64,000 nt of DNA from Polyangiaceae bacterium (GTDB lineage: Bacteria; Myxococcota_A; Polyangia; Polyangiales; Polyangiaceae). The notes beneath the pieces were generated by a model. The model did not search any database, was not told the origin of the DNA, and saw only the letters and a list, made by a program, of their open reading frames with translations. Numbering within the stretch: position 1 is the first letter of the stretch; each line of letters begins with the position of its first letter. Where the stretch lies: NCBI GenBank assembly GCA_033763455.1, contig JANRKO010000028.1:96001-160000 (forward strand), read 5' to 3'. A program made the translations under genes and the position numbers. Positions 5,104 to 55,680 of this stretch are shown piece after piece.

Positions 5104-5119
5104 TGGTGCGTTTTGTGCT
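5104..5119 (+). promoter_or_regulatory. sigma54-type -24/-12 element
   Basis: TGGTGC-GTTTT-GTGCT, GG-N10-GC; ATG 5134 is 16 nt after the -12 C. Confidence 0.45.
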
Positions 5120-5133
5120 TCCCTCACCCGAAG

Positions 5134-5574
5134 ATGCCCAAGACAAATTCCTCCACGCACTGGTCCGCGAGATTCGTGGTGGTGAGTGTGCTGATCTCGG
5201 GCTGCAGCTCCGCGCTTGAAGAACCGCCCCACGTGGCGGCACCCATGAGTGCTTACGTCGAAGTTCCCTATCCGCCACCTGCAGGCTTTACTGAGCTCGT
5301 TCCTGCAAAGCCCGCGGCAAATGCGCTCTGGATCGATGGCGGTTGGGTTTGGTTAGGCCAAAAGTACGCGTGGGAAAGAGGGGGCTGGCTTGTCCCTCGT
5401 GCGGGTGCGACTTTCGCGCCGTGGTCTGTGCGTTATGAAGCAGATGGCCGGCTGAAGTTCGCTCCGAGTGGATGGTTCACGCGTGATGGACGCCCATTGC
5501 TTGCGCCTTCGTTCCTCGTTTCTGCGACCATCCCCACCAACGAAGTTACCTCTGAAACGCAGAGCCCGCGTTGA
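5134..5574 (+). CDS. YXWGXW-repeat lipoprotein
   Basis: Lipobox-like LISGC, Pro-rich segment, WIDGGWVWLGQKYAWERGGW repeat motif. Confidence 0.75.
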   Translation: MPKTNSSTHWSARFVVVSVLISGCSSALEEPPHVAAPMSAYVEVPYPPPAGFTELVPAKPAANALWIDGGWVWLGQKYAWERGGWLVPRAGATFAPWSVRYEADGRLKFAPSGWFTRDGRPLLAPSFLVSATIPTNEVTSETQSPR

Positions 5575-5732
5575 TGAGCTGGGTGGGCAAGGCTCAGCTT
5601 CGAGCCGTGGCAAAATTCCACAGCTGTGGCCGTGGTGCTAGCGCGTGCGGTTGCCTTCTACGACCGTGGTGCGTCCCGGTGCTCTTCAGCTCAACACAGG
5701 ATCTATCGGCACGGCTGAGGCGACGAACAGCT

Positions 5733-5748
5733 TGGCACATGCATTGCG
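5733..5748 (+). promoter_or_regulatory. sigma54-type promoter for peptidase-katE
   Basis: TGGCAC-ATGCA-TTGCG, consensus match. Confidence 0.8.
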
Positions 5749-5768
5749 TACATGGCGGCGGGTCCAAC

Positions 5769-6872
5769 ATGAAGCGTTTCGTTTGCGAGTGCTCAGCTCC
5801 CATCTTTTTCGATAACACCCAGTGTTTAAGCTGCGGCAGAACGTTGGGGTATGTGCCGGAGACGTTTGAATTAAAGCCTCTTGATTTTGACGGGAGCGTG
5901 CGGGTTCGCGGCACCCGTTTTGTGAAGTGTCGAAACTACTCCCAGCAAGGAGTGTGCAATTGGTTGGTCTCCGAGTCTGCTTCGGATGACCTGTGTTCAG
6001 CTTGCGAGCTCAATCGTGTGATTCCAGATTTGGCGCAAGCGGAGAATCGAGCGCTTTGGCTCGAGGTAGAACAGGCCAAGCGTCGCCTGATTTATGGCCT
6101 GAATCGCCTGGGGTTAGCCGTCACCTCAAAAGCAAAAGATCCCCAAGCTGGCTTATTCTTCGACATTAGAGCCGACGCAGGCAGCGAGCGTGTCCTTACC
6201 GGTCATAATGACGGCCTCATCACTCTGAACTTAGAAGAGGCAGACGCGGCCGAACGAGAGAGGATCCGCGTCAGTATGAAAGAGCGTTACCGTACGCTTC
6301 TTGGGCATTTTCGCCATGAAATCGGTCACTACTATTTTGGGCTCTGGGCGGGCAAGCGCCTGCCAAACGAGCAGTTTCGAGCGCTGTTTGGGGACGAATC
6401 CGCCAACTATCAGGAGGCGCTGCGCCGGCACTATGATCGCACCGACAGCACACAATTCTCAGATTCGTTCATCAGCTTCTACGCAAGCGCACATCCCTGG
6501 GAAGATTTTGCTGAGACGTTTGCGCACTACCTGCACATGGTGGACACGCTGGAAACGGCAGCCGCGTTCGGCTTCGTTACAGACGTCGGGCAGAGCCTCG
6601 CCCCACAACCGCGACATTCTCCGCAAAAAGGCGAGATCCGCTTCAAACGCCTGATGGGAGAATGGGTAAATCTCACGGTTGCCCTGAATTCTCTCAACCG
6701 CAGCATGGGCCTTCCCGACGCATATCCTTTTTCAATCTCGCCGAAAGTTGTCGGCAAGCTCGCTTTTGTCGACGCCTTGATTCACGACGCCCCAATGCCC
6801 CAAGAAAGCCCAGAAAATGCCCAAAAAATCTCCAAAGTCGCTCACTTCGCGAAAGCGACCGTCGCTCACTGA
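5769..6872 (+). CDS. Putative zinc-binding metallopeptidase with N-terminal zinc ribbon (DUF2248-like)
   Basis: [19 protein letters not shown] zinc ribbon; [15 protein letters not shown] (HExxH); [19 protein letters not shown]. Confidence 0.85.
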
Positions 6873-8937
6873 CTCCGCCGCTTCACACATCGGTGAGGGA
6901 GGCGAGTTGCATCAGGTTTCTGATGAATTGCTCTTGACCACCAATCAAGGAATCCCAATCAGCGATGATCAGAATTCGCTGCGCGTGGGAGCACGCGGCC
7001 CGATCTTGCTGGAGGACTTCGTACTTCGCGAAAAGATTACGCACTTCGATCACGAACGTATTCCGGAGAGAATCGTGCACGCGCGTGGCTCCGGTGCGCA
7101 CGGGTACTTCGAAACCCTCACTTCCATGGCGCAGTATTCGAGCGCGGATTTTCTGCAGAGTGTCGGTACAAAAACGCCGGTCTTTGCGAGGTTTTCCACG
7201 GTTGCAGGGGGAGCCGGTTCGGTGGATCTGCCGCGTGATGTGCGCGGCTTCGCCGTGAAGTTCTATACGCGTGAGGGGAACTTTGATCTGGTTGGCAATA
7301 ACATTCCCGTTTTCTTCATCCAGGATGCCATGAAGTTCCCTGATCTTGTGCACTCGGTGAAAATGGAGCCAGATCGCGGGTTTCCGCAGGCTGCTTCCGC
7401 GCACGATACCTTTTGGGATTTCGTTTCTCTCACCCCGGAGAGCACCCACATGCTGATGTGGGCCATGTCAGACCGAACCTTGCCACGCTCCCTGCGCATG
7501 ATGGAGGGGTTCGGTGTGCACACCTTCCGATTGGTGAACAAGCTTGGAGAGTCCACGTTCGTTAAGTTTCATTGGCGCCCCAAGCTCGGAATGCAATCGG
7601 TGCTGTGGGATGAGGCGGTCAAGATCAACGGTGCCGACAACGACTACCACCGGCGCGATCTTTGGGATGCCATCGAATCAGGCAACTTTCCGGAGTGGGA
7701 GCTCTCCTTTCAGCTCTTTACCGAAGAGGAAGCCCTGAGCTTCGATTTCGACGTGCTGGACCCCACCAAGCTGATTCCGGAGGAGCTGGTACCTCGCACG
7801 CTTGTTGGCCGGCTCGTGCTCGACCGGAACCCAAGGAATTTCTTTGCGGAGACCGAACAGGTGGCGTTTTGCCCTGCCAATATCGTCCCCGGCATCGAAT
7901 TCAGCAACGATCCACTGCTCCAAGGGCGCCTCTTTTCGTACCTAGACACGCAGCTTCTACGGCTTGGCGGACCCAACTTTCACCAGCTTCCCATTAACGC
8001 CGCAAAATGCCCGATGCAGAATTTTCAGCGCGATGGGCACATGCAGATGCAGATCCCCGAAGGTCGCGTGAATTACGAGCCCAATTCATTAGCCCCAGAC
8101 GGTGCTCGAGAGGATCCGCGCGCCGGTTTTAGGACGTTCCCGAGAACCGAAAAAGGCGGAACCTTGCGCATGCGTCCCGAGGCCTTCGCCGACCATTACT
8201 CGCAGGCTCGGCTTTTTTGGAAGAGCCAGACGGAGGCGGAGCAAGGGCACATCGTGGCGGCCTATGTATTTGAGCTTAGCAAGGTGGAAACTCAAGCGAT
8301 TAGGGAACGCGTCATCGGGCACTTGGTGCACGTGGACACAGGGCTGGCAAAGCGAGTGTGTACAGGGTTGGGGATTTCAGAGCTTCCCCCTGCTGCAGAA
8401 GCTGTCTCCGCTCCGCAAGATTTGCCTCCGTCTGCTGCGCTCAGCATCATCAACAATGCAAAGGTGACGCTCACCGGTCGTGCCGTGGGCTGCCTTGTGA
8501 CGGACGGGGTTGACGCCCGTCTGCTGCAAACGCTGATCGATGTGGTGGAAGCTGAAGGCGCCGAAGTGAGGCTGATTGCAACCAAGATCGGTGGCGTTGT
8601 TCAAAGCAACGGTCAGCGTTTGTTGGCGGACGTTGCGCTAGCTGGGGGCCCCTCGGTCCTCTTTGATGCTGTAGCGATCCTGGTGAGTGAGGCGGGTGCG
8701 AGGGAGCTCTTGGAGGAGTCGGCGGCGGTTGCCTTTGTGTCGGACGCTTACCAGCATCTCAAAGTAATTGGACATAGTGCTGAGGCGGCTCCCTTATTGG
8801 TTGCTGCACGAGTTCCGCCCTCGGGTGACGCTGGCGTTGTGGCTCTAAACGAAGAACGGGATGTAGAGGCCTGGGCCACCTCCGCGAAAGCGGGCCGCAT
8901 TTGGAAACGCGAACCTCTAGTGAAAATTGTCCTCTGA
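6817..8937 (+). CDS. katE: Large-subunit catalase HPII
   Basis: [37 protein letters not shown] heme-ligand motif, C-terminal DJ-1-like domain. Confidence 0.97.
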
Positions 8938-8958: not shown

Positions 8959-8974
8959 CGGCACAAGGGTTGCA
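8959..8974 (+). promoter_or_regulatory. sigma54-type promoter for CsbD gene
   Basis: CGGCAC-AAGGG-TTGCA. Confidence 0.8.
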
Positions 8975-9040: not shown

Positions 9041-9340
9041 ATGAACAATGCAAGCCGAAGGAGTGAAGGTGTGGCCGAAAAACTGGGCGGAAAAGTCAAA
9101 GGAGCCGTGGGAAAGCTGATAGGTAACGAACGGATGGAAGCCGAGGGAAAAGTGAAAGAACTCAAGGGAAAGGCGAGGGAGGAGGCTGCAAAAGCCTCTG
9201 AGCGCACCAAGGGCAAAGTTGAGCAAATCTCGGGTGCCGTAAAGAACCGCGTTGGCGCGGTGATCGACAACGAGCAAATGCAGGCCGAAGGCAAGGCCAG
9301 GGAGTTGAAGGGGCAGGCGCGGCAGAAGATTAACCGCTAG
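9041..9340 (+). CDS. CsbD-family general stress protein (two repeats)
   Basis: GKVKGAVGKLIGNERMEAEGK motif occurs twice; AAGGAG RBS. Confidence 0.9.
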   Translation: MNNASRRSEGVAEKLGGKVKGAVGKLIGNERMEAEGKVKELKGKAREEAAKASERTKGKVEQISGAVKNRVGAVIDNEQMQAEGKARELKGQARQKINR

Positions 9341-9496
9341 GCTCCTTGGATCCGCTCCAGCATGAGTGCTGAACCCGTGGCGGCGGTGGAGTTATTGGGC
9401 TGCACCGCCGGCCACCGCCCAGGCAAGACAATTTGCCTAAGACCTGACCTTCCCAGGTTGTAGCGGGGGTTGGCCGAGTACCTGAGGACGTAGAAC

Positions 9497-10396
9497 ATGA
9501 GAGTCCTTTCATTGGTTCCAGGCTCGTGGGCATTTATTAAGCAGGTTGGCGAAGCCTGGCTCAACCACAATGCTTCGCGCATGGCCGCCGCGTTGGCGTA
9601 CTACACGCTGCTTTCGGTTGCTCCGTTGCTCGTGATTCTTGTATCCATCGCCGGGCTCGCCTTTGGGGCTGAGGCCGCTCGAGGTGGCGTCGCTCGCGAG
9701 ATTTCTTCGTTGGTCGGCCGCGAGGCTGCGGCAGGCATACAGGTTATCCTCGCCAATGCCGAGGCACCCGCTTCGGGGATCCTGAGCTCAGTCCTTGGCC
9801 TGGGCGTGCTGCTACTCGGGGCGTCCGGCGTGTTCGGTGAACTCCAAGCTGCACTCAACACAGTGTGGGAGGTGCCTGCGCAGAATTCCTCGGGCCTGAT
9901 GCAGATGATCAAGGATCGATTCCTTTCATTTGCGATGGTTCTAGGCGTTGCCTTCTTGCTCCTGGTATCGCTCGTGATTTCCACGGCAATTGGCGCGGTG
10001 GGGCACTTCCTGGAGAGCGCCTTGCCCGGCGGCGAGAGCATTTGGCAGGTCCTCAATTTCCTTCTCTCGCTGGGCGTCATCACTTGCCTGTTCGCGCTCA
10101 TCTTCAAGGTGTTGCCGGATGTTCGTGTGGCGTGGCGTGAGGTGTGGGTGGGTGCTCTGGTTACCGCTTTTCTGTTTAGTGTCGGCAAGTTCTTGATTGG
10201 GTTGTATCTTGGAAAATCAATGGTTTCGTCGCCGTACGGCGCCGCAGGTTCCACGGTGGTGTTCGTGGTGTGGGTCTACTATTCCGCGCAGATCATGTTG
10301 TTGGGCGCGGAATTCACACAGGTCTACGCGCGGCGCTTGGCGCTCGATCTTCCCGTGCAAGCTGAAAAGCTCGGCCGCGAGGCCAGCGAAGGGTGA
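9497..10396 (+). CDS. YihY/BrkB-family inner-membrane protein
   Basis: MAAALAYYTLLS..P, ALNTVW, YGAAGS..VWVYYSAQIMLLGAEF. Confidence 0.92.
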   Translation: MRVLSLVPGSWAFIKQVGEAWLNHNASRMAAALAYYTLLSVAPLLVILVSIAGLAFGAEAARGGVAREISSLVGREAAAGIQVILANAEAPASGILSSVLGLGVLLLGASGVFGELQAALNTVWEVPAQNSSGLMQMIKDRFLSFAMVLGVAFLLLVSLVISTAIGAVGHFLESALPGGESIWQVLNFLLSLGVITCLFALIFKVLPDVRVAWREVWVGALVTAFLFSVGKFLIGLYLGKSMVSSPYGAAGSTVVFVVWVYYSAQIMLLGAEFTQVYARRLALDLPVQAEKLGREASEG

Positions 10397-10464
10397 GGCT
10401 GCAGCGTGGCGAAGTGCCTCACTGTGCGATCAGAATAAGCCCATTGCAAAACAATTGAGCAGCA

Positions 10465-13400
10465 TTGCAATCGGTGGGTTCTGTCGTACAAGGGTCGAGT
10501 GAACAACCGTTGGGGCATGTGAAGGTGGCGTTCGAAAAACGGAGCTACGTAAGGCCATCCAGTTCCTCGGGCGTTTTGAGGGTTACGGATCGTGCGCGAG
10601 CTCTCGTTGCGCCCCGTCACGGCGTGTACTTCTACCAAGACTCTAACGAGCTTGTGGAGGTCGTTGCGAAGTTCGTCATAGTGTCACTTTCGGGCGGGGT
10701 GCCAGCCGTACTGATTGCCACGTCTGAGCATCTGGTGGGCGTGACACGGCACCTGGCACAAGCCGGCTACGACCCGAGTGAGCTCGAAGCTCGGCGCATG
10801 CTGACGCTCCTCAATGCGCGGGACACCTTAAAAAGCATCGCGGTGGATGGGAAGCCGCACGCGCAGCGTTTGACTGCACTTGTGGGTGGGGTCTTGGAAG
10901 AGGTTCGCAAGCATTCCCAACAACCATGTCTGTCGTTGTACGGGGAGATGGTGGATATCTTGTGGAGCGAGGGGCGTCGCGAAGCGGCGTTGCGCCTCGA
11001 AGATCTTTGGAATCGCCTCCAGGAAACATCGCGCTTGAACCTCCTTTGCGGCTACGCAACCTCCGCTGGTGAGCACGTCGGGGACGCACGCATTCGGTGC
11101 TTGCATGACCACCTCCTGCAATTGGCGCCGGGTGGCGAGGCGGGGCTGTTGCTAACGACCCCGAACGATTCGGAGAGTGACGTTTCGCTGAGAGGATCTC
11201 TTCGGGAGTTTTGGCTGAAGGAAGACGCTCTTCGAAGCAATGAAGTTCAATTGCAGTTTATTGTGAATGCTTTGCCCGTCTTGGTGTCTTACGTCGATGC
11301 CAATGAGCGCTTTCGGTTGGCCAATCACCGTTATGAAGAGTGGTTTGGTTTGGCGGGGCGCGGAACACCCGGCAAGCACTTGAAAGATGTCGTCGGCGGC
11401 GATGCTTACGAACAGATGCGCCCCCACGTTGAGCGCGCGTTGAGTGGGCAGATGGTGGTTCACGAGCAGACACTCCCGATCCCAACCGGTGGCCAGCGCT
11501 CGGCGGAAGCCACATATATTCCCCACCTTGGGGAAAATGGTGAAGTTCACGGCCTCGTCACCTTGGTCGCCGATATCTCCGAACGCAAAGCGCTTGAATC
11601 CGCGCGAGTTGCTGTTGCACTCAGGACTGAGCGCCTGATGAAAGTCGCTACCGCCTTGGCGGAAGCCATCACGCCGGATGAGGTCTACTCGGCCATCGTC
11701 TCACAAACGTCCTTCGTGCTGAACGCCTCTTCATCGGGCCTTTGGCTGTGCGACACTTCGGACCCCAACCTCATCCACCTGGTCCGGGGCTTTGGGTACA
11801 CTCCTTCCAGCGAAGCCGCCCTTTTGAGCCTCAGGCTTGACGCGAAAGACCGAACGCCGGTCTCGGATGCTCTAACGAACGGCGTGCCCGTTTGGATACC
11901 TTCTCAAGCGCACCTTCTTGAACTCTATCCGCATCTTTCAGGACTAGTTACAAAGGGACGCTCCTATGGTATCGCCGCTCTGCCCCTGGTGGCGCAGAGC
12001 GGGAAGCTGGGTGCGTTGGCGTTCACGTTCGACGGAACTCTCACGCTGGACGAAGAAGGGAAAACGTTGCTGCGCCTGGTGGCGCACTACTGCACTCAGG
12101 CGCTGGAACGCTTGCGGATGTTGGAAACGGAGCGCCAGGCCCGGGCTGAGGCTGCAGCTTCAGCATCGCGACTATCCCTGCTCAGCCGAGCTTCCAAAGT
12201 CTTCTTAGAGCCGAAGCCAGATCTTCAGGCCGTACTCGGGCACGTAGCAGCGGCCGTCACGGTAGAGCATGCAAGTGCTTGCGCCATCCATTTACTCTCC
12301 GAAAATGGGCGTGAGCTTGTGCTCCACGCCCTGCGCGAGCGCAGCGCTTTAGAGGATCACGGCGGGCCATCCGTATGGCTTTCGGATGCAGTGCGGATTG
12401 GAGAGGGGTTCATGGGATCGGGCGCTGCTTTCGGCGGAGCTTTGACGCGCGCGAGCTTGTTGGTGGTTCCGCTTCGCGTTCGCGGGGAGTTTTTGGGGAT
12501 ACTGAGTGCTAATCGCGCAGGGGAAGCGCCTGCCTTCTCGCTCCACGATCGGCATTTGATGGAGGAGCTAGCCGACCGCACGGCGCTCGCGATTGAGAGC
12601 AACCGTCTCTATTCGGAAAGCAAACAAGCTCAGCTGCGCGCCGAGCTACTCTACGAAATGGCAGGAGCCGTGATTCGTGCCGAGTGTGTGGAGGACGTCT
12701 ACGACGCAGCGCTCCACGCTATTGAAAGGGCGCTGGGCGCCCCACGCTCCGCGATCTTAGGATCTGATGAGCACGGAAAGATGCGGTTCAAGCGGTGGCG
12801 GGGCCTTTCGGACTCCTATCGCGCGGCCGTTGATGGTCACTCGCCGTGGGAAAAAGACGCGAGGGGCGCCCGACCCATTCTTGTGCCCAACGTGTTTGAG
12901 GACGCGAGCATGGCAAGTTACGCCCACGTTTTCGCGGCCGAGCACATCGGCGCATTGGCCTTCATTCCGCTCCAGGCACCGGTTCAGGCCGGGGGCAAGT
13001 TGATTGGAAAATTCATGGTCTATTACCCGGCACCACGGGTTCTCAGTACGGCTGAAATTGAAATGGCGCAGGCCATCGCCCACCACGTGGCTTCCGCCAT
13101 GACACGTTTTGCCGCGCTCGGTGAGTTGAAGAAGACCGTCCACTTCAACGAAATGTTCACGGGAATTCTTGGTCATGATCTCAGAAATCCACTCTCAGGA
13201 ATCATGTCCGCGGCACAGCTCATGGCTATTCGCGAGCAAGGGGAGCACATTCAAAAGCCCCTAAATCTTATCTTGTCCAGTGGCACGCGGATGGCTCGAA
13301 TGATCGATCAGCTGCTCGATTTCACGCGCGTTCGCCTGGAGGCTGGCATTCCGCTGAAATTGGCCGAATGCGACTTGCTAGGGATCTTGCGCCAGACGCT

Positions 13401-13818
13401 GGATGAGCTGCAGGGCGCGAGTTCGGCGCACCGCTTTGTAGTCGATAATTTGGCGCAAGAAACCACTGGGCGCTGGGACGCGGACCGCCTGTCTCAGGTG
13501 TTTTCAAATTTGCTCGCGAATGCCGCACGTCACGGCGCGCCGGGTCAACGCGTGCGCGTCGCCGTCCGTGAAATCGAGAGCGGTCTTCGTGTGGATGTGC
13601 ACAACCACGGCTCAATCCCCCCGGAGCTTCTACCGAGGATCTTTGAGCCCCTTGTTACCGTTGGAAGGGCTGGAGGGGAGGGCTTGGGCCTCGGTCTACA
13701 TATCGCCCAGGAAATCGTGAAGGCGCATCGTGGGCGAATTGAAGTGCGCTCAAGTTCCGAGGAAGGCACGACGTTCAGCGTTTACCTGCCGCGGGTGCTA
13801 CGATCGGATCTTGCGTAG
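10465..13818 (+). CDS. Cytoplasmic sensor histidine kinase: MEDS-PAS-GAFx3-HisKA-HATPase (start uncertain)
   Basis: MEDS (HGVYFYQD..YGEMVDILW..LEDLWNRL..LLCGY), PAS, GAF repeats, LGHDLRNPL, NLLANA, GLGLGL. Confidence 0.88.
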   Translation: MQSVGSVVQGSSEQPLGHVKVAFEKRSYVRPSSSSGVLRVTDRARALVAPRHGVYFYQDSNELVEVVAKFVIVSLSGGVPAVLIATSEHLVGVTRHLAQAGYDPSELEARRMLTLLNARDTLKSIAVDGKPHAQRLTALVGGVLEEVRKHSQQPCLSLYGEMVDILWSEGRREAALRLEDLWNRLQETSRLNLLCGYATSAGEHVGDARIRCLHDHLLQLAPGGEAGLLLTTPNDSESDVSLRGSLREFWLKEDALRSNEVQLQFIVNALPVLVSYVDANERFRLANHRYEEWFGLAGRGTPGKHLKDVVGGDAYEQMRPHVERALSGQMVVHEQTLPIPTGGQRSAEATYIPHLGENGEVHGLVTLVADISERKALESARVAVALRTERLMKVATALAEAITPDEVYSAIVSQTSFVLNASSSGLWLCDTSDPNLIHLVRGFGYTPSSEAALLSLRLDAKDRTPVSDALTNGVPVWIPSQAHLLELYPHLSGLVTKGRSYGIAALPLVAQSGKLGALAFTFDGTLTLDEEGKTLLRLVAHYCTQALERLRMLETERQARAEAAASASRLSLLSRASKVFLEPKPDLQAVLGHVAAAVTVEHASACAIHLLSENGRELVLHALRERSALEDHGGPSVWLSDAVRIGEGFMGSGAAFGGALTRASLLVVPLRVRGEFLGILSANRAGEAPAFSLHDRHLMEELADRTALAIESNRLYSESKQAQLRAELLYEMAGAVIRAECVEDVYDAALHAIERALGAPRSAILGSDEHGKMRFKRWRGLSDSYRAAVDGHSPWEKDARGARPILVPNVFEDASMASYAHVFAAEHIGALAFIPLQAPVQAGGKLIGKFMVYYPAPRVLSTAEIEMAQAIAHHVASAMTRFAALGELKKTVHFNEMFTGILGHDLRNPLSGIMSAAQLMAIREQGEHIQKPLNLILSSGTRMARMIDQLLDFTRVRLEAGIPLKLAECDLLGILRQTLDELQGASSAHRFVVDNLAQETTGRWDADRLSQVFSNLLANAARHGAPGQRVRVAVREIESGLRVDVHNHGSIPPELLPRIFEPLVTVGRAGGEGLGLGLHIAQEIVKAHRGRIEVRSSSEEGTTFSVYLPRVLRSDLA

Positions 13819-13845: not shown

Positions 13846-14457
13846 TCAACCCCTGTCGGAGGGTAGGTCCCCTCGGTTTGGCGGCCCCTTTTCTACCAGA
13901 TGAGGGTTCATGGTGTAATCAAGCGCAGAGCTCACAGCCGTGGCCGGTACCGCCTGCTGAAGCGCGTCCGCAACGGGATCGATTCGGTCTCGCACGTTCG
14001 GCAGATCGCGACGCAGCTCTTCGAGCAGAGCAATGATCTTCCCTGTGCGCTGCTCAGCCAGCAAATTCACCTGCAATTCCAAGTGCGCATTGCGCTCCGC
14101 CTCCTTGCTCTGACGGTTCTGCGTTATCAGAACGATCGTGGTCATGATGGCCGCGTACAGAGTGACAATGCCTTGCAGGTAGAAGTATGGCGGGGAGTCG
14201 AAAGGACGAGCGCCCTTCAGCTCTAGCGAATGGTTGTAGATTGTCCAAATCAGGACGCCGGCTATGAGCGCGTACAGGGTACGTGGCTTGCCAAGGAAGC
14301 CTGTCACTGACTCCACTGCACGCTGGCCGCGCTGCACACGCCGCGCCGCCGCCTGGTGCAAGGCGTGCACCGCTTGGATATTATCGTACACGTGCTCGGG
14401 GACGGTATTGCCATCCGCTTTGGGCGCGGGCGAGCTTGGGTTAACCAGGGGTGTCAA
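13846..14457 (-). CDS. DUF1003 membrane protein
   Basis: FDSPPYFYLQG..LITQNRQ..LELQVNLLAE. Confidence 0.85.
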   Translation of the reverse strand: MTPLVNPSSPAPKADGNTVPEHVYDNIQAVHALHQAAARRVQRGQRAVESVTGFLGKPRTLYALIAGVLIWTIYNHSLELKGARPFDSPPYFYLQGIVTLYAAIMTTIVLITQNRQSKEAERNAHLELQVNLLAEQRTGKIIALLEELRRDLPNVRDRIDPVADALQQAVPATAVSSALDYTMNPHLVEKGPPNRGDLPSDRG

Positions 14458-14476: not shown

Positions 14477-14492
14477 AGCAAGTTCCGAGCCA
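14477..14492 (-). promoter_or_regulatory. sigma54-type promoter for DUF1003 gene
   Basis: Minus strand TGGCTC-GGAAC-TTGCT. Confidence 0.65.
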
Positions 14493-14576: not shown

Positions 14577-14592
14577 TGGCACGCGCCCTGCT
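14577..14592 (+). promoter_or_regulatory. sigma54-type promoter for ku/ligD operon
   Basis: TGGCAC-GCGCC-CTGCT; ATG 14605 is 14 nt after the -12 C. Confidence 0.75.
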
Positions 14593-25737: not shown

Positions 25738-25746
25738 TGCAGCCGA

Positions 25747-42609: not shown

Positions 42610-42772
42610 AACATGTGACTCTAAATCGACGGCTCTATTGCGTGTCACTCTGGCGCGGGTTGTGATTGGGGGTATCCGTTCAGATTTCGATATGCCTTTG
42701 GCATTTGGACGGCGTGGCAAAGCGCACCAGCGAGGGCTTTGTGCAACAAAAGGGTGCTGGCATGTTCGCCGA

Positions 42773-42788
42773 CGGCACGCGCTGTGCA
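42773..42788 (+). promoter_or_regulatory. sigma54-type promoter
   Basis: CGGCAC-GCGCT-GTGCA. Confidence 0.7.
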
Positions 42789-43392: not shown

Positions 43393-43408
43393 CGGCACGT
43401 ATATTGCT
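43393..43408 (+). promoter_or_regulatory. sigma54-type promoter
   Basis: CGGCAC-GTATA-TTGCT. Confidence 0.8.
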
Positions 43409-43484: not shown

Positions 43485-43931
43485 ATGAACGCAATAGATC
43501 TGCTCAAAGAAGACCACACCCTCGTGCGCGACCTTTTGGAACAACTCACAGCAACGTCCTCACGGGCAAAAAAGTCGCGTGCCGATCTCTTGGTCAAAAT
43601 CGCCCGCGAAATCCGAGTGCATGCCCAGATTGAGGAGGATATTTTTTATCCAGCGTTCCGCAAGGTCGCCAAGGATGATGCCATGTTCTTTGAAGCGCTA
43701 GAGGAGCACCGCGCCGTGGAGCGCCTCGTTCTGCCTGACTTAGAGAAGACTCCCGTGGACTCGGAGCGTTTCAGTGGGCGCGCGAAGGTGCTCAAGGACT
43801 TGATCGAGCACCACGCGGATGAGGAAGAAGAGGAGATGTTTCCCAAGGCCAAGAAGCTCATGGCTCGGGAAGACTTGGAGATGCTAGGGAAACGCATGCT
43901 TGCTTTAAAGAGTGAGCTTAAAGCGGCGTAA
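43485..43931 (+). CDS. Hemerythrin (HHE) domain protein
   Basis: LLKEDH, HAQIEEDIFYP, EEH, HHADEEEEEMFP. Confidence 0.92.
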   Translation: MNAIDLLKEDHTLVRDLLEQLTATSSRAKKSRADLLVKIAREIRVHAQIEEDIFYPAFRKVAKDDAMFFEALEEHRAVERLVLPDLEKTPVDSERFSGRAKVLKDLIEHHADEEEEEMFPKAKKLMAREDLEMLGKRMLALKSELKAA

Positions 43932-44078
43932 CACTTTCGAGGGAAAAGCGTCCCGCAAACGTGCGCAGGCAGCCAAAATTTGCGTTCCCCAAGTGTGGCA
44001 AAATGCCCCAGCGAGGGGTTCTCGGGGTGCGTGTGGTGGAAGGGTGAATGCAGTGCTTTCCGTGAACCCAAGTCGTGT

Positions 44079-48704: not shown

Positions 48705-48720
48705 TGCAACGAACGTGCCG
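48705..48720 (-). promoter_or_regulatory. sigma54-type promoter
   Basis: Minus strand CGGCAC-GTTCG-TTGCA. Confidence 0.8.
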
Positions 48721-48907: not shown

Positions 48908-48923
48908 TGGCACACGCCTTGCT
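48908..48923 (+). promoter_or_regulatory. sigma54-type promoter
   Basis: TGGCAC-ACGCC-TTGCT, consensus match. Confidence 0.82.
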
Positions 48924-48981: not shown

Positions 48982-49206
48982 ATGAAGATTGGATGGTATT
49001 TGGCAGTTCTTAGTCTATCTATGTGCGCTGCGTGTGGCGGAGGCCAGAAAGAGCCTGAAGATGCGGATGGTGCCGCTGAAAGGGCCGGCGAACGCATCGA
49101 TACCGCAGCGGAGAAGGCGGGCTCCGAAGCGGAGGAAGCCACCGAAGATGTTGGCGAAGCGGTGGAAGATGCAGGTGATGATATTCAGGAAAAATCTAAC
49201 GAGTAA
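48982..49206 (+). CDS. Small acidic lipoprotein (LEA/YtxH-like helical repeats)
   Basis: AGGAG RBS, CAAC lipobox, AERAGERID..VGEAVEDAGD. Confidence 0.8.
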   Translation: MKIGWYLAVLSLSMCAACGGGQKEPEDADGAAERAGERIDTAAEKAGSEAEEATEDVGEAVEDAGDDIQEKSNE

Positions 49207-49250
49207 ATCCGCAAAGGTTAAAAGTCCAAAGAGTAAATCCGCAAAGGTTA
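49201..49250. repeat. 20-nt exact direct repeat with 30-nt period
   Basis: GAGTAAATCCGCAAAGGTTA at 49201 and 49231. Confidence 0.9.
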
Positions 49251-49313
49251 GAAGATTTGCAGACGCTCGTAGTGGGTGACCTGCGGAGACTTGGTATTTA
49301 GAAAGGTTCTACT

Positions 49314-49613
49314 ATGATTCAGCGAGTAATTGCGTTGTCGTTCTTGTTTTGTGCGGTCTCTCTTGGGTGCAGCGACGATCCCGTTGAGCAGATAACGAAC
49401 AAGATAACGTGCAGAGATGTGTGTGGGCGCTATAAGGATTGTATCGACTCCAACTACAATGTGGATATGTGCGTGAGCAAATGTGAGGCGGATGCTTCCG
49501 CGGAAGAGGCCAAGGAGCAGAAGCTCAACACGTGTGAAACCTGCTTGGATGACAAGTCCTGCACGGATTCGGTATTCAAGTGTGGAGTCGAATGTACGGG
49601 TGTGGTGCCGTAA
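49314..49613 (+). CDS. Cys-rich lipoprotein
   Basis: SLGC lipobox; 10 further Cys in about 80 aa; AAAGG RBS. Confidence 0.8.
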   Translation: MIQRVIALSFLFCAVSLGCSDDPVEQITNKITCRDVCGRYKDCIDSNYNVDMCVSKCEADASAEEAKEQKLNTCETCLDDKSCTDSVFKCGVECTGVVP

Positions 49614-49698: not shown

Positions 49699-49799
49699 AT
49701 TAGATGAGATCTCGGGTGGCAAATTGCCCCGCGGAAGAGTGCTTTCGGATTCTGACCTAGCCTGGCCGTTGTGCTCGTGGGATTTTGCTTCAACCGACA

Positions 49800-52487
49800 A
49801 TGACCATATCTTCCCACGACTCGTTTTCGACGTTCCGACAACTGCAGGTGCCGGCTGGCACCCGCGGCTACTTCAGCTTACCAGCGCTTGCTGAAAGTGT
49901 GCGGGTGGATCTCGCACGCCTCCCATACTGTCTTCGCGTTTTGCTTGAGAACTTGCTCCGATGCGAGGATGGAAAATCCGTGACGCGTCAAGATATTCTG
50001 GCGCTCGCGGCCTGGGAACCGCAGGGCAACGCCCATGGTGAGATCGCCTTTCACCCGGCACGCGTGGTGCTTCAGGATTTTACGGGCGTCCCCGTAATCG
50101 TAGATCTTGCAGCGTTGCGTGATGCCATGGCGGAAATGGGTGGGGATCCCTCAAAGATCAACCCGCTGTTTCCGCTTGAGCTAGTGATCGATCACTCAGT
50201 GCAAGTTGATTCCTACGGCAGCTTAGATTCTCTATTGGTAAATACACGCAAGGAGTACGAACGGAACACCGAGCGTTATACGTTGTTGCGCTGGGCGCAG
50301 AATGCCTTCAACAACCTGAAGGTGGTGCCCCCGCAAACAGGTATTGTGCACCAGGTGAACTTGGAGCATTTGGCGCGGGTAGTCTTTGACTCTGAGGGCC
50401 TGCTCTACCCGGACACACTGGTCGGCACGGACAGCCATACCACCATGATCAACGGGCTTGGCGTGCTGGGGTGGGGTGTCGGCGGTATTGAAGCGGAGGC
50501 TGCCATGCTTGGGCAGCCCATCAGCATATTGATTCCGGAAGTTGTGGGGTTTCGTTTGCGTGGCAAGTTACCGCCGGGTAGTACCGCTACGGACCTCGTG
50601 CTGACCATTACGCGTCTGTTGCGCGATGTGGGTGTGGTGGAAAAGTTTGTCGAATTCTTTGGCGAAGGCCTGGATGATTTGCCGCTCGCGGATCGCGCTA
50701 CGATTAGTAACATGAGCCCAGAATTCGGCTCAACTTGCGCCATTTTTCCGATTGATGAGCAGACGCTCCGCTACCTTCGCCTTACCGGAAGAACGGATGA
50801 AGAGGTGGCGGTTATTGAGGCGTACACGCGCGCGCAAGGCTTCTTCCGAACCGCAGATGCTGTGGAGCCTGTATTCACGCAGGTGCTTGAGCTCGATCTT
50901 GGCACTGTCGTTCCTAGCTTAGCGGGTCCGCGGCGGCCGGAAGATAAAGTGGCTTTGAGTGCCGCCAAAGCAACTTGGGAGTCAGAGCTTGCTACGCTCA
51001 TCTCCAGCGCTCGCGCTGAACCAGCCGCCGTCGCTTTTGTTAACGCATCCAACCAAACCTTTGCGTTGAGTCACGGCAGCATCGTAATAGCCGCCATCAC
51101 ATCCTGCACCAATACGTCCAATCCTGCCGTCATGATGGCAGCCGGCCTCTTAGCACGAAATGCTCGTGCACACGGCCTAGAAGTAAAACCCTGGGTGAAG
51201 ACAAGCTTGGCGCCCGGCTCGAAGGTGGTAACCCGTTACCTAGAAGATGCCGGCGTGCTTCAAGATCTGGAGGCTTTGCGGTTTAACGTGGTGGGGTACG
51301 GCTGTACTACGTGTATTGGAAATAGTGGCCCTCTAGACGCACCGATTTCAGAAGCCGTGAACGCTCACAATCTTGTGGTGGTAAGCGTGCTCAGCGGGAA
51401 CCGCAATTTTGAAGGTCGCATCAGCCCTGATGTGCGCGCTAATTTCCTTGCGAGCCCTCCTTTGGTAGTGGCCTACGCCTTGGTGGGTCGGATGGACGTG
51501 GACCTGTTGACGGAGCCGTTGGGAGTGGATAGGAGTGGCAATAACGTCTTCCTGAGGGACATTTGGCCGTCGCCAGAGGAGGTGCAACGAGCAGTTCAGG
51601 CCCACGTGCAGGTCAGCCTGTACCGGGAGGAATATGCGAGTGTCTTTGAAGGAGATGCGGTCTGGAAAGCTCTGCCGGTTCCTCGCGAGCGCCTTTTCGC
51701 GTGGGATGCGGGGAGCACCTACGTGAGGCGTCCGAGTTTTCTGGAAGGCATTCCTCGTGAGCCTGCACCACTTGATGACATCCGGGGCGCGCGCGTTCTC
51801 GCCAAGCTCGGGGACTCGGTAACCACCGATCATATCTCCCCAGCCGGGAATATCTCCAAGGCATCGCCCGCGGGCGCTTACCTGCAAATGCATGGCGTGA
51901 AAGTTGCGGACTTTAATTCCTACGGTGCTCGTCGAGGCAACCACGAGGTCATGGTGCGCGGCACGTTTGCCAACGTGCGGCTGCGAAATCAGCTAGCCCC
52001 TGGAACGGAGGGCGGCCTCACTCGTCTCCTTCCTGACGGAGGCATCACATCACTCTTCGACGCCGCAGAGGCCTATCAAGCCAGCGGAACGCCCCTCTTG
52101 GTCCTGGCCGGCAAAGATTACGGCACCGGCTCGTCGCGCGATTGGGCGGCCAAAGGTACACGGCTTTTGGGGGTGAAAGCTGTCCTCGCAGAATCCTTCG
52201 AGCGCATTCACCGCAGCAACTTGATCGGCATGGGGGTCTTGCCTCTGCAATTTTTGCCCGGCCAGAGTGCTTTTACGCTAGGCCTCTCCGGTGAGGAGCG
52301 TTTCGATATTCAAGGCATCGCGAGTGCGCTTAGCCTCTCCAAGCTGCTGGATGTCGCCGCAACGGCCTCCGATGGACAGGTAAAACATTTTCGGGTCGTG
52401 TGTCGCATCGATACGCTGGTGGAGCTGGACTACTACTCGCATGGCGGCATTTTGCCCTTCGTTTTGCGCCAACTGCTGAGGGCGTGA
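49800..52487 (+). CDS. acnA: Aconitate hydratase A
   Basis: LQDFTGVP, IDHSVQVD, GTDSHT, AITSCTNTSNP, GYGCTTCIGNSG, TTDHISPAG, GSSRDWAAKG. Confidence 0.97.
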   Translation: MTISSHDSFSTFRQLQVPAGTRGYFSLPALAESVRVDLARLPYCLRVLLENLLRCEDGKSVTRQDILALAAWEPQGNAHGEIAFHPARVVLQDFTGVPVIVDLAALRDAMAEMGGDPSKINPLFPLELVIDHSVQVDSYGSLDSLLVNTRKEYERNTERYTLLRWAQNAFNNLKVVPPQTGIVHQVNLEHLARVVFDSEGLLYPDTLVGTDSHTTMINGLGVLGWGVGGIEAEAAMLGQPISILIPEVVGFRLRGKLPPGSTATDLVLTITRLLRDVGVVEKFVEFFGEGLDDLPLADRATISNMSPEFGSTCAIFPIDEQTLRYLRLTGRTDEEVAVIEAYTRAQGFFRTADAVEPVFTQVLELDLGTVVPSLAGPRRPEDKVALSAAKATWESELATLISSARAEPAAVAFVNASNQTFALSHGSIVIAAITSCTNTSNPAVMMAAGLLARNARAHGLEVKPWVKTSLAPGSKVVTRYLEDAGVLQDLEALRFNVVGYGCTTCIGNSGPLDAPISEAVNAHNLVVVSVLSGNRNFEGRISPDVRANFLASPPLVVAYALVGRMDVDLLTEPLGVDRSGNNVFLRDIWPSPEEVQRAVQAHVQVSLYREEYASVFEGDAVWKALPVPRERLFAWDAGSTYVRRPSFLEGIPREPAPLDDIRGARVLAKLGDSVTTDHISPAGNISKASPAGAYLQMHGVKVADFNSYGARRGNHEVMVRGTFANVRLRNQLAPGTEGGLTRLLPDGGITSLFDAAEAYQASGTPLLVLAGKDYGTGSSRDWAAKGTRLLGVKAVLAESFERIHRSNLIGMGVLPLQFLPGQSAFTLGLSGEERFDIQGIASALSLSKLLDVAATASDGQVKHFRVVCRIDTLVELDYYSHGGILPFVLRQLLRA

Positions 52488-52557: not shown

Positions 52558-52710
52558 CTAAAGCGATGTCCGCCGACCGGTAATCAAGTTGATCAGCACC
52601 ACCACAATCGCCACTACCAATAACAGGTGAACGAACCCACCCATGGTATAGGAAGTGACCAGCCCGAGTGCCCAGAGCACCAACAGAATAACAGCAATTG
52701 TCCACAACAT
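52558..52710 (-). CDS. lmo0937-family small membrane protein (50 aa)
   Basis: Below the ORF-track cutoff; MLWTIAVILLVLWALGLVTSYTMGGFVHLLLVVAIVVVLINLITGRRTSL; AAGGA RBS. Confidence 0.9.
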   Translation of the reverse strand: MLWTIAVILLVLWALGLVTSYTMGGFVHLLLVVAIVVVLINLITGRRTSL

Positions 52711-52781: not shown

Positions 52782-52797
52782 AGCAAGCATCGTGCCG
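52782..52797 (-). promoter_or_regulatory. sigma54-type promoter
   Basis: Minus strand CGGCAC-GATGC-TTGCT. Confidence 0.8.
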
Positions 52798-52953
52798 CTG
52801 GTGGAACAGGGCAGATGCGGTGTTCAGACGCCATGCCAACGCGGGATTCGCGTCCCACCCAAAGCCGGGAGACCATCACCGCGGTGCCATTGCGCAACGG
52901 CGCAACTTGCCCCACGTGTGGCAATTCACACCGTTCTTCGATTCTCTTTTTGG

Positions 52954-54606
52954 TCAAGCTATCTGAGGCACAGCCGCGAGAACTTCTAGCAACTGATGCG
53001 CATCCACTGGCTTCACCAGATGCGCCTCAAATCCGGCCGCAGCGCTCCTTGCTTTGTCGCTCGTTTGACCGTAGCCGGTAAGCGCGACCATTCGGCAGCC
53101 GGTACAGCTTGGGAGTGCGTGGAGCTTTTTCGCAAGCGTGTAGCCGTCCATGACGGGCAAACCTATGTCGAGTACCGCGAACTCCGGTCGAAATTCACCA
53201 GCGAGTTCGAGAGCCGCGAGTGGTTCTGTGGCGACCGCGACCTCGTGACCAAAAGAGCGCAAAATGTCCCCAAGCACTTCGGCCGCGTCGACGTTGTCGT
53301 CAACCACGAGGATTCGCTTCGAAATACCAGGCTGGGAGCGTGCCACCTCTGCCCTAGGGATTTGAGAACTGGTAGAGCCCGCGCGAGCAGGTAGACGAAC
53401 CCGAAATTCACTACCCAGACCCAGGCCAGCACTCACTGCACTCACGCTGCCCCCATGAAGCTGAACTAGATTCTTAACGAGAGCTAGGCCAACGCCCAGG
53501 CCCCCTCCTGGTCGCCCTTGGCCGCGAGGTGCCTGCGCAAACATGTCGAAGATGTTCGGAAGAATATCGGGCGCGATGCCTATGCCGTCGTCCTTTACGC
53601 AGAGCACGATCTCATCTTTCTCTCGAAACGCGGAGAGCTCGATGTGGCCGCCTGGGTGCGTATAGCGTGCGGCGTTGGTTAACAGATTAGCGACAACTTG
53701 GGATATTCGCACGGCATCCACGCGAACCCGTAGCCCTGTCCGCGGGACGTGCACTAAAAGCGTACTGCCTCGATTTTCTAGCAGAAAGCTAGCCATCTCG
53801 ATCGCTTCGGCGACCACCGTCCCAAGCTCCACCCATTCTTTACGGAGCTGGACTTTGCCGCGGGTGATTTTGGAGACATCCAAAAGGTCGTCTACCAGGC
53901 GCACCAGGTGCGTCACATGCCGTTCGATAAGCGCAAGCTCACGAGTGAGCTTGCCAGAATTTCGGAGCTTCACGAGTCCAATCGCCGTCACGATTGGAGA
54001 AAGTGGGTTGCGGAGCTCGTGACCCAACATAGCAAAGAATTCGTCCTTCGCGTTGTTGGCGGCCTCAAGGTCGCGGAGCAATCGCTCTCGTTCTGAGTAA
54101 GAGCGCTCCACAACGTGTCGGGCGCTTGCGGGGTCACTGATTTCGAGGCCGGCGATCATCAGCCCACTCACTACCCCCTCCTGCTGGATGGGCTCGACGT
54201 TGAAGCAAAATAGCGCCTCTTGGGGCTGGCCCTCTCCCGTGCGGGTCAAACTCATCCGGAATTCTGAAGTCGAAAAAGGATTCCCCGTTCGATACACCTC
54301 GCTCAATATCCCAACAAATTCACTGCCTTCCAATTCAGGAAACACTGCCGAAAAAGGCTTGCCAACAATGTCTCTCCTTCCAGCGATCTGGCAGTACCGC
54401 TCATTGGCTAACTCAAACGTGAGGTTATCTCCAGATAGCACCGCCACCGCGAATGGTGCTCTGTGCAGCAGGCGGTCGAGCGCATCGGCACGAGTGCTAT
54501 CCGTTGGAGGCGATGAGCTTGACGATGGTTTGGCGGGCACGGAAGTAAGATGAGACGATTTGGAAGCAACGTTCAAGGTTTTCTCAGGCTCAATGTCATG
54601 GGGCAA
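52954..54606 (-). CDS. Hybrid histidine kinase PAS-HisKA-HATPase-REC
   Basis: LGHELRNPL, NLLTNAARYT, GGLGVGL, ILVVDDN, LDIGLP. Confidence 0.92.
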   Translation of the reverse strand: MPHDIEPEKTLNVASKSSHLTSVPAKPSSSSSPPTDSTRADALDRLLHRAPFAVAVLSGDNLTFELANERYCQIAGRRDIVGKPFSAVFPELEGSEFVGILSEVYRTGNPFSTSEFRMSLTRTGEGQPQEALFCFNVEPIQQEGVVSGLMIAGLEISDPASARHVVERSYSERERLLRDLEAANNAKDEFFAMLGHELRNPLSPIVTAIGLVKLRNSGKLTRELALIERHVTHLVRLVDDLLDVSKITRGKVQLRKEWVELGTVVAEAIEMASFLLENRGSTLLVHVPRTGLRVRVDAVRISQVVANLLTNAARYTHPGGHIELSAFREKDEIVLCVKDDGIGIAPDILPNIFDMFAQAPRGQGRPGGGLGVGLALVKNLVQLHGGSVSAVSAGLGLGSEFRVRLPARAGSTSSQIPRAEVARSQPGISKRILVVDDNVDAAEVLGDILRSFGHEVAVATEPLAALELAGEFRPEFAVLDIGLPVMDGYTLAKKLHALPSCTGCRMVALTGYGQTSDKARSAAAGFEAHLVKPVDAHQLLEVLAAVPQIA

Positions 54607-54711
54607 ATTGCCTCAGTGTGGTGGTCTTGTGGTCTGCAGTTCCTCAACGCTCTTGCGCTGATGAGGGGTCTCGCGGCCAAACAACGCGGGAAGGTCATCC
54701 TGCAGATCGTG

Positions 54712-54727
54712 TGCAATTGCCGGACCA
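54712..54727 (-). promoter_or_regulatory. sigma54-type promoter for the kinase
   Basis: Minus strand TGGTCC-GGCAA-TTGCA. Confidence 0.6.
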
Positions 54728-54769
54728 GCCATGAAGTGTCGCGCACTTGGCGCTTTGCCGGCGTCACCT

Positions 54770-54877
54770 CAGGCAGCGCGTGCACAAGGTGGATGCAGCA
54801 GCGAACGCAAAGTCCAAGCAGAGTGAGCGCGAGGTGGATGCAGCAGCGAACGCATGTCCAGGCAGCGCGTTTGCAAG
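54770..54877. repeat. About 45-nt imperfect tandem repeat (2.4 copies)
   Basis: Exact core AGGTGGATGCAGCAGCGAACGCA at 54787 and 54832; CAGGCAGCGCGT at 54770 and 54859. Confidence 0.85.
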
Positions 54878-54905
54878 ATCCCGGTGGCGCGTAGTCAAGC
54901 GGGCT

Positions 54906-54921
54906 TGGCATGAGGGGTGCA
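54906..54921 (+). promoter_or_regulatory. sigma54-type promoter
   Basis: TGGCAT-GAGGG-GTGCA; in-frame GTG 54933 is 13 nt after the -12 C. Confidence 0.7.
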
Positions 54922-54932
54922 AGCACTTAGCC

Positions 54933-55331
54933 GTGACTCCCCACGACTCAAGTGTGACCAGTGCACCGGCAGAGGTCATTCACGGCGCGCTTGACCTGCT
55001 ACGCGCCGAAATCAAAGTGGGGGTGGCCCACGCACGAGCCTTCGGAGTCCACGCCGGAATCGCTGTGGTGTTGGCCCTATTCAGTGCCGTCGTGCTGCAA
55101 GCTGCGGTCATTCTAACGGTGCTCTCCCCGCTTTGGTTTGATCATCTGCCGGTATCGAGAGCGTTGTTGGCTCTCGCAGCCCCGTACGTTGCAGCGGTTT
55201 TGGCGGCCGGGGGAGCGTACTTGGTCTGGCGGAAGGCATGCGAACCACCCCCTTTCCGCGATATTCACCACCCACATTTGCAAGTGAGAAACAACGATGA
55301 CGAACGAGCCCGGAAATCAGAAGCCCTTTGA
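54933..55331 (+). CDS. YqjE/holin-like two-TM membrane protein
   Basis: ALDLLRAEIK amphipathic helix followed by two TM helices. Confidence 0.6.
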   Translation: MTPHDSSVTSAPAEVIHGALDLLRAEIKVGVAHARAFGVHAGIAVVLALFSAVVLQAAVILTVLSPLWFDHLPVSRALLALAAPYVAAVLAAGGAYLVWRKACEPPPFRDIHHPHLQVRNNDDERARKSEAL

Positions 55332-55680
55332 AAATGGCGTAAATGAAGCGGAGCGGGAGTTAATTCAAGCCCGAGAACACTTTAGCGAAACACTGCGTGA
55401 TGCGTCGGCAGCATCCAAGATAGTAGTTAGGCAGGTGTGGCAATCCGGCAAGCCTGTGCTCCTGGGTGCAGCAATTCTGACTGGGGTTGTGGTGCTTGTT
55501 GCAGCACGAAGAGCGAGGGCACCCCGTTCATTTATCGAAATTCGAGTCACGGCCCCCACGGGCACGGCCTCGGTGCAAAAGAGCCTCCTAACGCTCGCGG
55601 CGAGGCTCGCGGTCGCTCTGTTGATTCAGCGCGTTGGCAAGGCGCGTTCACGGGGCTTCGAACTCGCTCAAGCCAGCTAA
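55297..55680 (+). CDS. Hypothetical membrane-anchored protein (YqjK/DUF3618-like position)
   Basis: Coiled N-terminus plus TM; follows the YqjE-like gene; paralogous fragment at 30.1 kb. Confidence 0.65.
   Translation: MTNEPGNQKPFENGVNEAERELIQAREHFSETLRDASAASKIVVRQVWQSGKPVLLGAAILTGVVVLVAARRARAPRSFIEIRVTAPTGTASVQKSLLTLAARLAVALLIQRVGKARSRGFELAQAS

Follow-up and report, generated by a model that had tools for sequence, protein, structure and literature searches.

How does a bacterium of the order Polyangiales switch on its protective genes? The question is raised by a block of about 50 kb (the island; positions 5,104 to 55,680) within a 64,000-nucleotide stretch of Polyangiaceae DNA (the window; C28:96001-160000 of genome G000, a 6.56-Mb assembly that is 93.7% complete). 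General stress responses are classically attributed to RpoS, SigB or EcfG, and the literature searched revealed no switch for these protective genes in this order. A preliminary description of the window had proposed, from 27 GG-N10-GC elements, that the cluster is run by sigma54 and an enhancer-binding protein encoded elsewhere. We conclude, with a probability of about 0.72, that the island, which has sigma54 motifs before most of its operons, is one regulon under a single NtrC-family activator binding a shared palindrome. Its promoters are predicted to fire, and the response may be "general" in scope.

Genes were predicted with a purpose-built dicodon scorer (5,529 genes; start positions and operon counts are approximate). 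A consensus score used weights set from the established RpoN consensus, which is also printed in PMC9765219; a sigma54 matrix was trained on 85 sites, all from outside the window. All 27 elements lie where they had been reported (the number given for a minus-strand site is the low end of its 16-mer), and 25 have consensus scores of 4.8-7.1. The weak ones are 40934 and 20092, the latter already set apart as lacking an adjacent gene, and no gene lies behind it. Three good minus-strand sites had escaped the list (5087-5102, 32824-32839 and 40983-40998). By consensus score, the island ranks first of 371 overlapping 50-kb genome bins, with 23 oriented intergenic sites compared with a median of 2. 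The proposed concentration of oriented sites also holds with the matrix: at a threshold of at least 8 bits in operon-leading upstream regions, 22/31 island regions have a site versus 183/3,325 elsewhere (Fisher P = 8e-21), and at the stricter level of 10 bits, 17/31 versus 125/3,325. At the latter level, 200 dinucleotide shuffles yield a mean of 0.48 and a maximum of 3, while spacing controls one base longer and shorter find 1/31 and 0/31 island regions.

The sigma54 promoter calls are further supported because start codons spike 12-13 nucleotides (nt) behind the GC. At 8 of the 27 listed sites, the start codon of an open reading frame (ORF) of at least 86 codons lies at this distance. Genome-wide, in a count made independently of gene calls, an ATG that starts a reading frame of at least 50 codons falls at exactly 12-13 nt for 33/434 sites (4.6 expected, P = 9e-18), compared with 1/409 and 1/361 in the spacing controls, and the same peak is found in relatives (14/82). 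A Shine-Dalgarno-like word accompanies 4 of these 33 sites. The predicted 5' leaders of 0-3 nt suggest that many of the mRNAs would be near-leaderless, and the spacing predicts transcription starts to the base.

The arrangement is retained among kin, where conservation is not an independent test. In three genomes of the same genus (G001, G002 and G003), the island again adjoins the bamA-like gene; its genes stand in a different order, and each contig piece has 7-18 sites. Site position is kept ahead of the orthologues of the iron-redox enzyme (3/3, with the 24463 site near-identical), the bamA-like gene (3/3, including the divergent motif pair at 5087-5119), the Gfo/Idh/MocA oxidoreductase (18442; 1/1, in G001) and the Ser/Thr kinase (25747; 1/1, in G003), and katE is inside an operon in both relatives examined. 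Across the order, a site of at least 10 bits precedes 14/27 csbD genes from 23 genomes, compared with 0 and 0 in the spacing controls (one locus, with too short an upstream region, was left out).

A candidate binding site for the activator emerged de novo. The top motif found by expectation maximization (EM) in 64 upstream regions of the three relatives is a 17-bp palindrome, YG(T/A/G)GGCR-W3-YGCC(A/T/C)CR (log-likelihood of 93.8, versus about 12 for shuffles), and a separate EM on the window's own 20 regions recovers it. With a matrix built from the relatives only, 14 of the 132 genome-wide intergenic matches fall in the island, where about 1 is expected (about 13-fold). The palindrome lies 52-128 bp upstream of six island promoters (a shuffled motif reached no more than 3 in any of 30 trials); at 10 bits or more and 40-190 bp upstream, it is found at 7/19 strong island promoters versus 11/167 elsewhere, and a looser count in which shared sites are scored twice gives 12/29. 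Four strong copies with no sigma54 motif behind them stand ahead of three kinases and acnA, and one more falls where the fourth kinase begins. These may be feedback or repression sites. Three orthologues of the RsbRD_N-PAS kinase keep the copy at an unchanged offset (8.7-16.6 bits), and that of the PAS hybrid kinase (54598) is also at the start of two orthologues. Other leads were discarded. A by-eye guess, TGCCAC-N4-GTGGCA, was enriched in the window (8 versus 0.66) but not in relatives (0-2 per contig piece), and is a tail-to-tail reading of the half-sites of the actual dyad; in a k-mer and dyad contrast with other sigma54 promoters, nothing survived some 80,000 tests; and the palindromes are unlikely to be terminator hairpins, having on inspection uncompensated stem mismatches and no U-run.

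The placement of the activator outside the cluster is borne out, as the genome has 29 full-length sigma54-activator ATPase domains, none of them inside the window. Among these, G000:C33:2409-3776 has the highest-scoring palindrome upstream (13.6 bits), together with its own sigma54 motif. It encodes a REC-AAA-HTH protein (HTH_8) with a GAFTDA loop, a variant listed as activation-keeping in PMC4641369, and its neighbors are DUF4398/OmpA, CBS, BON and Hsp20 genes. The orthologues in G001-G003 are 79-80% identical, retain both motifs and are flanked by ytxH, holin_3_6, DUF4398/OmpA and RsbRD_N kinase genes. The neighbors of the activator in further genera, among them Sorangium, are DUF1328, hemerythrin or Usp genes. 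Loci encoding its type of recognition helix, DRRTLYR[KR]L, have palindrome-promoter pairs in 11/14 cases versus 2/83 other activator rows, a contrast that counts for less in that the 83 rows are mostly from other phyla, where the matrices fit less well, and one locus (L083) overlaps training DNA. At 12 fresh loci chosen by helix similarity only, the palindrome is upstream of 14/41 promoters and downstream of 1, covering 8/12 loci (with column shuffling, the motif gave no more than 3 in any of 30 trials). Across 250 genomes sampled from the phylum, 14 members of the order have this helix type, as does a single genome from elsewhere. We infer from these associations that the C33 protein is the cognate activator of the island promoters.

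The candidate scores under every named NCBIfam cut-off among the matches listed (best, AtoC, 434 vs 714), its best solved structural relatives are NtrC-family and ZraR structures, and a genome-collection scan returned mostly generic NtrC-family proteins (37-48%), the nearest named relatives being Polyangiaceae and Sorangium records. A Sorangium locus (L092) has the same activator type, and three palindrome-promoter pairs lie there next to genes for DUF1328, hemerythrin and hybrid kinases. Outside Myxococcota, an activator in a Pseudomonas record (L120) has almost the same helix, accompanied by two palindrome-promoter pairs that are weak.

Next to the activator, C33:3788-4579 encodes a 263-residue protein with a predicted histidine-kinase-like fold (predicted local distance difference test, pLDDT, of 77). 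In 11/11 aligned sequences it has H-A-L-G-T, with alanine after the histidine and the threonine four residues on kept, and, unlike a HisKA autokinase, it has neither DxGxG, the first glycine box for ATP binding, nor an acidic residue after the histidine. According to PMC3510030, proteins with such residues lose kinase activity but retain that of a phosphatase, and the partner is accordingly predicted to be kinase-dead.

In the mechanism that we propose, stress signals would reach the receiver of the activator via the PAS/GAF/MEDS kinases of the island. The phosphorylated activator would bind the palindrome about 50-130 bp upstream and open the sigma54 polymerase already waiting at some 20 promoters simultaneously, one-third or so of which would yield near-leaderless mRNAs. 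It would also fire its own promoter, giving positive feedback, and the histidine-kinase-like partner may either return the activator to its resting state or pass phosphate to it from the hybrid kinases. Palindromes without a sigma54 motif at the kinases and acnA might serve feedback or repression. Sigma54 control would render such a response tight and ATP-gated.

Several observations weigh against a single circuit of this form. Nine of the 31 operon-leading regions have no sigma54 site: those of yihY, 30298, 49314 and 55677 (likely internal or outside), acnA and four kinases, among which the PAS hybrid kinase counts as siteless because its predicted start masked the weak 54712 site. Most operons thus have a sigma54 motif, but acnA, yihY and all but one of the four sensor kinases lack one of their own. 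A palindrome of at least 10 bits is missing 40-190 bp upstream of 12/19 strong island promoters; csbD, ligD and several others have none, just 5/14 csbD promoters of relatives have one, and the copy ahead of the PAS-GAF kinase is lost in two orthologues. The kinase-dead form of the partner is not general, as the partner has a recognizable ATPase domain in 3/4 more distant genera scanned, and near-leaderless starts characterize the sigma54 promoters of the whole genome rather than those of the island in particular. Finally, a second activator (C20:54519-55874) has an identical recognition helix.

Such gaps leave room for a neighborhood of sigma54-dependent promoters shared among several activators (the C20 paralogue and others of the 29), which would account for the many strong promoters without a strong palindrome. 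We regard this as unlikely: EM yields no second motif above the palindrome, no palindrome-promoter pair occurs within 6 kb of the C20 gene, which also lacks a palindrome in its own upstream region, and the C33 gene alone is linked to the cargo in relatives.

When compared to known systems, the island resembles the RpoS, SigB and EcfG regulons in cargo such as katE-type catalase, CsbD, BON, YtxH and GlsB/YeaQ. The PA2134-PA2190 cluster of Pseudomonas aeruginosa, which according to PMC9262955 holds PA2171 with katE and nonhomologous end joining (NHEJ) genes, is similar in clustering katE-type, CsbD, BON, YtxH, GlsB/YeaQ, lmo0937 and NHEJ genes. Unlike all of these, the island has promoters of the -24/-12 type with an enhancer-like site, and the 10 of 48 sigma70 matches that were scanned include no dedicated stress sigma factor. 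The activator shares its REC-AAA-HTH architecture with NtrC, ZraR and AtoC-type proteins, and the dyad geometry is like that of NtrC sites, whereas its GAFTDA loop, kinase-dead-looking partner and far larger target set differ. An atypical kinase partner, Nla6S, reportedly belongs to Nla6 of Myxococcus xanthus.

Further likenesses are in M. xanthus, where sigma54 activators govern starvation and oxygen regulons (PMC9765219 and PMC11841059). NmpRSTU/NmpR shares with the island an NtrC-like activator, a dyad enhancer, sigma54 promoters, several operons and multi-kinase input, but NmpR binds paired GCGCA-N5-TGCGC at 7 promoters for oxygen use (PMC11841059), and the island differs in site, cargo and size (about 20 operons in one block). 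Nla28 and Nla6 have stress-linked sigma54 regulons and autoregulated activators, as predicted here; Nla28, however, binds 8-bp half-sites arranged in tandem, and its promoters are mostly intragenic, whereas the island has an inverted dyad and intergenic promoters (PMC9765219 and bioRxiv 10.1101/2023.07.26.550624). The wiring could thus be as described and the program specific to development or low oxygen (myxospore formation or dormancy). The sugar-polymer genes and hemerythrin of the cargo, and the CBS, Hsp20 and Usp genes near the activator, would fit such a program, but we consider it quite unlikely. Membership in the NmpR regulon was rejected because the NmpR site is at background (1 vs 1.08 expected with one mismatch, 15 vs 13.4 with two). 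Also against this reading, the Nla28 half-site as printed in PMC9765219 is by eye unlike the palindrome, the activator's helix type is concentrated in this order, and the island's gene families include no oxidase genes.

The remaining possibility, that a sigma70-family stationary-phase factor transcribes genes whose motifs sigma54 merely binds, or that the motifs are chance or copied sequence, can draw on 48 sigma70 region-2 matches (including two extra RpoD-like and three RpoH-like proteins) and on acnA and three kinases without a sigma54 motif, but is very improbable given the enrichment, orientation, exact spacing, positional conservation and start-codon spike of the motifs, RpoS-, SigB-, EcfG- and sigma70-type patterns at or below background (4, 1, 4 and 0 of 31 regions), and a 12-13-nt distance to the ATG that leaves no space for a downstream promoter. 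Of the 48 matches, 10 were scanned, and none reaches the cut-off for RpoS or for SigB/F/G; a search of the 93.7% complete genome did not reveal NepR. A second rpoN dedicated to the island is likewise rejected, as the gene is single-copy in the genome (on C19) and present once per genome in 39/40 relatives.

The single-activator regulon is not a new mechanism, as every part of it is already known. What is added for the same protective genes in this order is a promoter class, a candidate activator, a candidate site and a candidate off-switch. We found no description of a sigma54-run cluster with such cargo in the literature searched, which did not extend to most subscription papers or to any supplements. 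It is tentative, and in our estimate short of an even chance, that Polyangiales have a fourth general-stress architecture, with no stress sigma factor and one order-specific NtrC-family master activator, in which input from several hybrid sensor kinases would pass to the activator via a kinase-dead hub, and self-amplification and kinase damping would shape the output of a largely near-leaderless sigma54 island.

Around the island, the preliminary description had seen no sites at flanking genes. Four flanking upstream regions agree (at most 1.9 bits), but the bamA-like gene (2872-4959) has a site of 15.5 bits. A sigma70-like promoter was reported for grpE, and a -35/-10 pair is indeed present by inspection. 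Elsewhere, the same matrix detects sites ahead of rpoN and of pilin-, flagellin- and flagellar-like genes, identified by eye. Those genes, which by eye have the N-termini of flagellin, flagellar or type IV pilin proteins, are on C20, C73 and C43 of G000; flagellar genes are unusual for myxobacteria. The motif of rpoN itself (G000:C19:14830) is 16 nt before the predicted start. An apparent second cluster at 111 kb on C23 was rejected, being a 21-bp tandem repeat (111410-111490) with a sigma54-like motif in every unit, and an apparent enrichment upstream on C28 reflects mostly bins that overlap the island.

The cargo, assigned by Pfam and NCBIfam, comprises an HPII-like catalase, CsbD, YihY, DUF1003, part of LigD, ATP-grasp, Gfo/Idh/MocA, iron-redox enzyme and methyltransferase genes; DUF4398/OmpA, YtxH, sugar-polymer genes, two BON proteins, YflT, GlsB/YeaQ and DUF1440; and a PA2171-family hemerythrin (192 bits against the NCBIfam cut-off of 190), AcnA, an lmo0937-family protein and holin_3_6, with four histidine kinases (three of them hybrid) and two Ser/Thr kinases for signaling (Table 1). 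No glycogen or trehalose genes are among the gene families of the window. The earlier identifications of katE, CsbD, YihY, BON, YtxH, GlsB/YeaQ and acnA were recovered, while that of Ku/LigD was not: the window has no Ku gene, and 14605-16341 encodes an in-frame fusion of 12 Ku residues with a LigD part that starts at about residue 272 of the G001 protein (837 residues) and lacks both the phosphoesterase domain and the ligase catalytic lysine motif. The "Ku/LigD" of the window is thus a deletion product or remnant. Intact Ku and LigD genes form a divergent pair at G000:C33:67363-70936 with no sigma54 site, and ku of G001 has a sigma54 motif at the same 13-nt spacing as the 14577 motif here.

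Table 1. Sigma54 motifs, enhancer-like palindromes and genes of the island in window coordinates (bits, matrix score; distances to start codons are from the GC of the motif).
Feature	Position	Strand	Context	Bits
Sigma54 -24/-12 motif	5087-5102	-	bamA-like gene; kept in G001-G003; newly added	15.5
Sigma54 motif	5104-5119	+	146-codon ORF, ATG at 15 nt	7.5
Palindrome	5605-5623		119 bp upstream of 5733 motif	16.2
Sigma54 motif	5733-5748	+	Peptidase_Mx gene and katE	12.0
Peptidase_Mx gene, katE-type catalase	5769-6872, then to 8937	+	Pfam/NCBIfam
Sigma54 motif	8959-8974	+	csbD	13.2
csbD, yihY	9041-10396	+
Palindrome	10404-10422		MEDS-PAS-GAF kinase; no sigma54 motif behind	15.7
MEDS-PAS-GAF histidine kinase	10465-13818	+	start uncertain
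Sigma54 motif	14477-14492	-	DUF1003 gene 13846-14457	13.4
Sigma54 motif	14577-14592	+	ATG at 13 nt	17.9
Truncated Ku-LigD fusion (14605-16341), ATP-grasp gene, hypothetical gene	14605-18367	+
Sigma54 motif	18442-18457	+	Gfo/Idh/MocA oxidoreductase 18470-19570, ATG at 13 nt	12.5
Sigma54 motif	20054-20069	-	86-codon ORF, ATG at 12 nt	8.5
Weak GG-N10-GC	20092-20107	+	no gene behind; consensus score 3.5; probably chance
Palindrome	20223-20241		between 20069(-) and 20415(+)	11.6
Sigma54 motif	20415-20430	+	hypothetical gene 20461-20817	9.3
RsbRD_N-PAS hybrid histidine kinase with receiver	20863-23376	-
Palindrome	23505-23523		RsbRD_N-PAS kinase; no sigma54 motif behind	16.0
Sigma54 motif	24463-24478	-	iron-redox enzyme gene 23513-24451, ATG at 12 nt	9.3
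Sigma54 motif	25722-25737	-	92-codon gene, GTG at 12 nt; methyltransferase next	17.3
Sigma54 motif	25747-25762	+	Ser/Thr kinase-receiver 25774-27003, GTG at 12 nt	16.4
Sigma54 motif	27041-27056	+	hypothetical gene 27106-27810	8.1
Palindrome	27815-27833		93 bp upstream of 27917 motif	11.8
Sigma54 motif	27917-27932	+	DUF4398 and OmpA-family genes 27988-29366	15.1
Sigma54 motif	29980-29995	-	ytxH-like gene 29534-29920	9.2
Sigma54 motif	30010-30025	+	87-codon ORF, ATG at 13 nt; Ser/Thr kinase next	10.1
Palindrome (strongest of island)	32705-32723		stretch without clear gene	16.9
Sigma54 motif	32824-32839	-	points into gene-poor 32084-32820; newly added	18.2
Glycosyltransferase, UDP-galactopyranose mutase, GH1-like genes	32821-36522	-
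Sigma54 motif	36574-36589	-	glycosyltransferase/UDP-galactopyranose mutase/GH1-like operon	17.3
Palindrome	36694-36712		between divergent 36589(-) and 36813(+), 114 and 110 bp away	11.0
Sigma54 motif	36813-36828	+	GH2 and class-III aminotransferase genes (to 40077)	11.0
Weak site	40934-40949	-	BON gene 40161-40895; listed in preliminary description; consensus score 3.7
Better sigma54 motif	40983-40998	-	same BON gene; 49 bp upstream of 40934 site	16.9
GlsB/YeaQ, BON, YflT-domain genes	41243-42522	-
Sigma54 motif	42594-42609	-	GlsB/YeaQ-BON-YflT operon	16.3
Palindrome	42712-42730		between 42609(-) and 42773(+)	13.0
Sigma54 motif	42773-42788	+	DUF1440 gene	15.4
Sigma54 motif	43393-43408	+	PA2171-family hemerythrin 43485-43931	16.0
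Palindrome	43993-44011		PAS-GAF hybrid kinase 44079-46982; no sigma54 motif behind	15.8
Sigma54 motif	48705-48720	-	glucose/sorbosone dehydrogenase-family lipoprotein gene	17.0
Sigma54 motif	48908-48923	+	two small lipoprotein-like genes 48982-49613	20.2
Palindrome	49714-49732		acnA 49785-52487; no sigma54 motif behind	15.4
Sigma54 motif	52782-52797	-	lmo0937-family gene 52558-52710	17.9
Palindrome	52916-52934		128 bp upstream of 52797 motif	11.2
Palindrome	54598-54616		start of PAS hybrid kinase 52954-54606	13.6
Weak sigma54 motif	54712-54727	-	upstream of PAS hybrid kinase 52954-54606	8.1
Sigma54 motif	54906-54921	+	holin_3_6-family gene, GTG at 12 nt	9.4
Final island gene	ends 55680

Three pairs of divergent motifs stand back to back, 1-14 bp apart (5087-5119, 25722-25762 and 29980-30025), and can hardly be occupied by two polymerases simultaneously. 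Between the divergent motifs at 54727 and 54906, there is a short direct repeat of about 20 bp (54790-54860). The stretch from 32084 to 32839 is gene-poor, with a strong sigma54 motif pointing in and the strongest palindrome of the island downstream of it; it is possibly a small RNA or a lost gene, and Rfam has no match here or anywhere else in the window.

At the island edge (window 1-4959), the Omp85/POTRA (bamA-like) gene is accompanied by a large TamB-like partner, and the sigma54 motif is found in four genomes; the two genes may be a stress-specific envelope assembly pair. The DUF4398 and OmpA-family pair occurs twice, at 27988-29366 of the window and at L081:875-2193 beside the activator. 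Both copies are preceded by a palindrome and a sigma54 motif, and in relatives the pair lies beside the activator.

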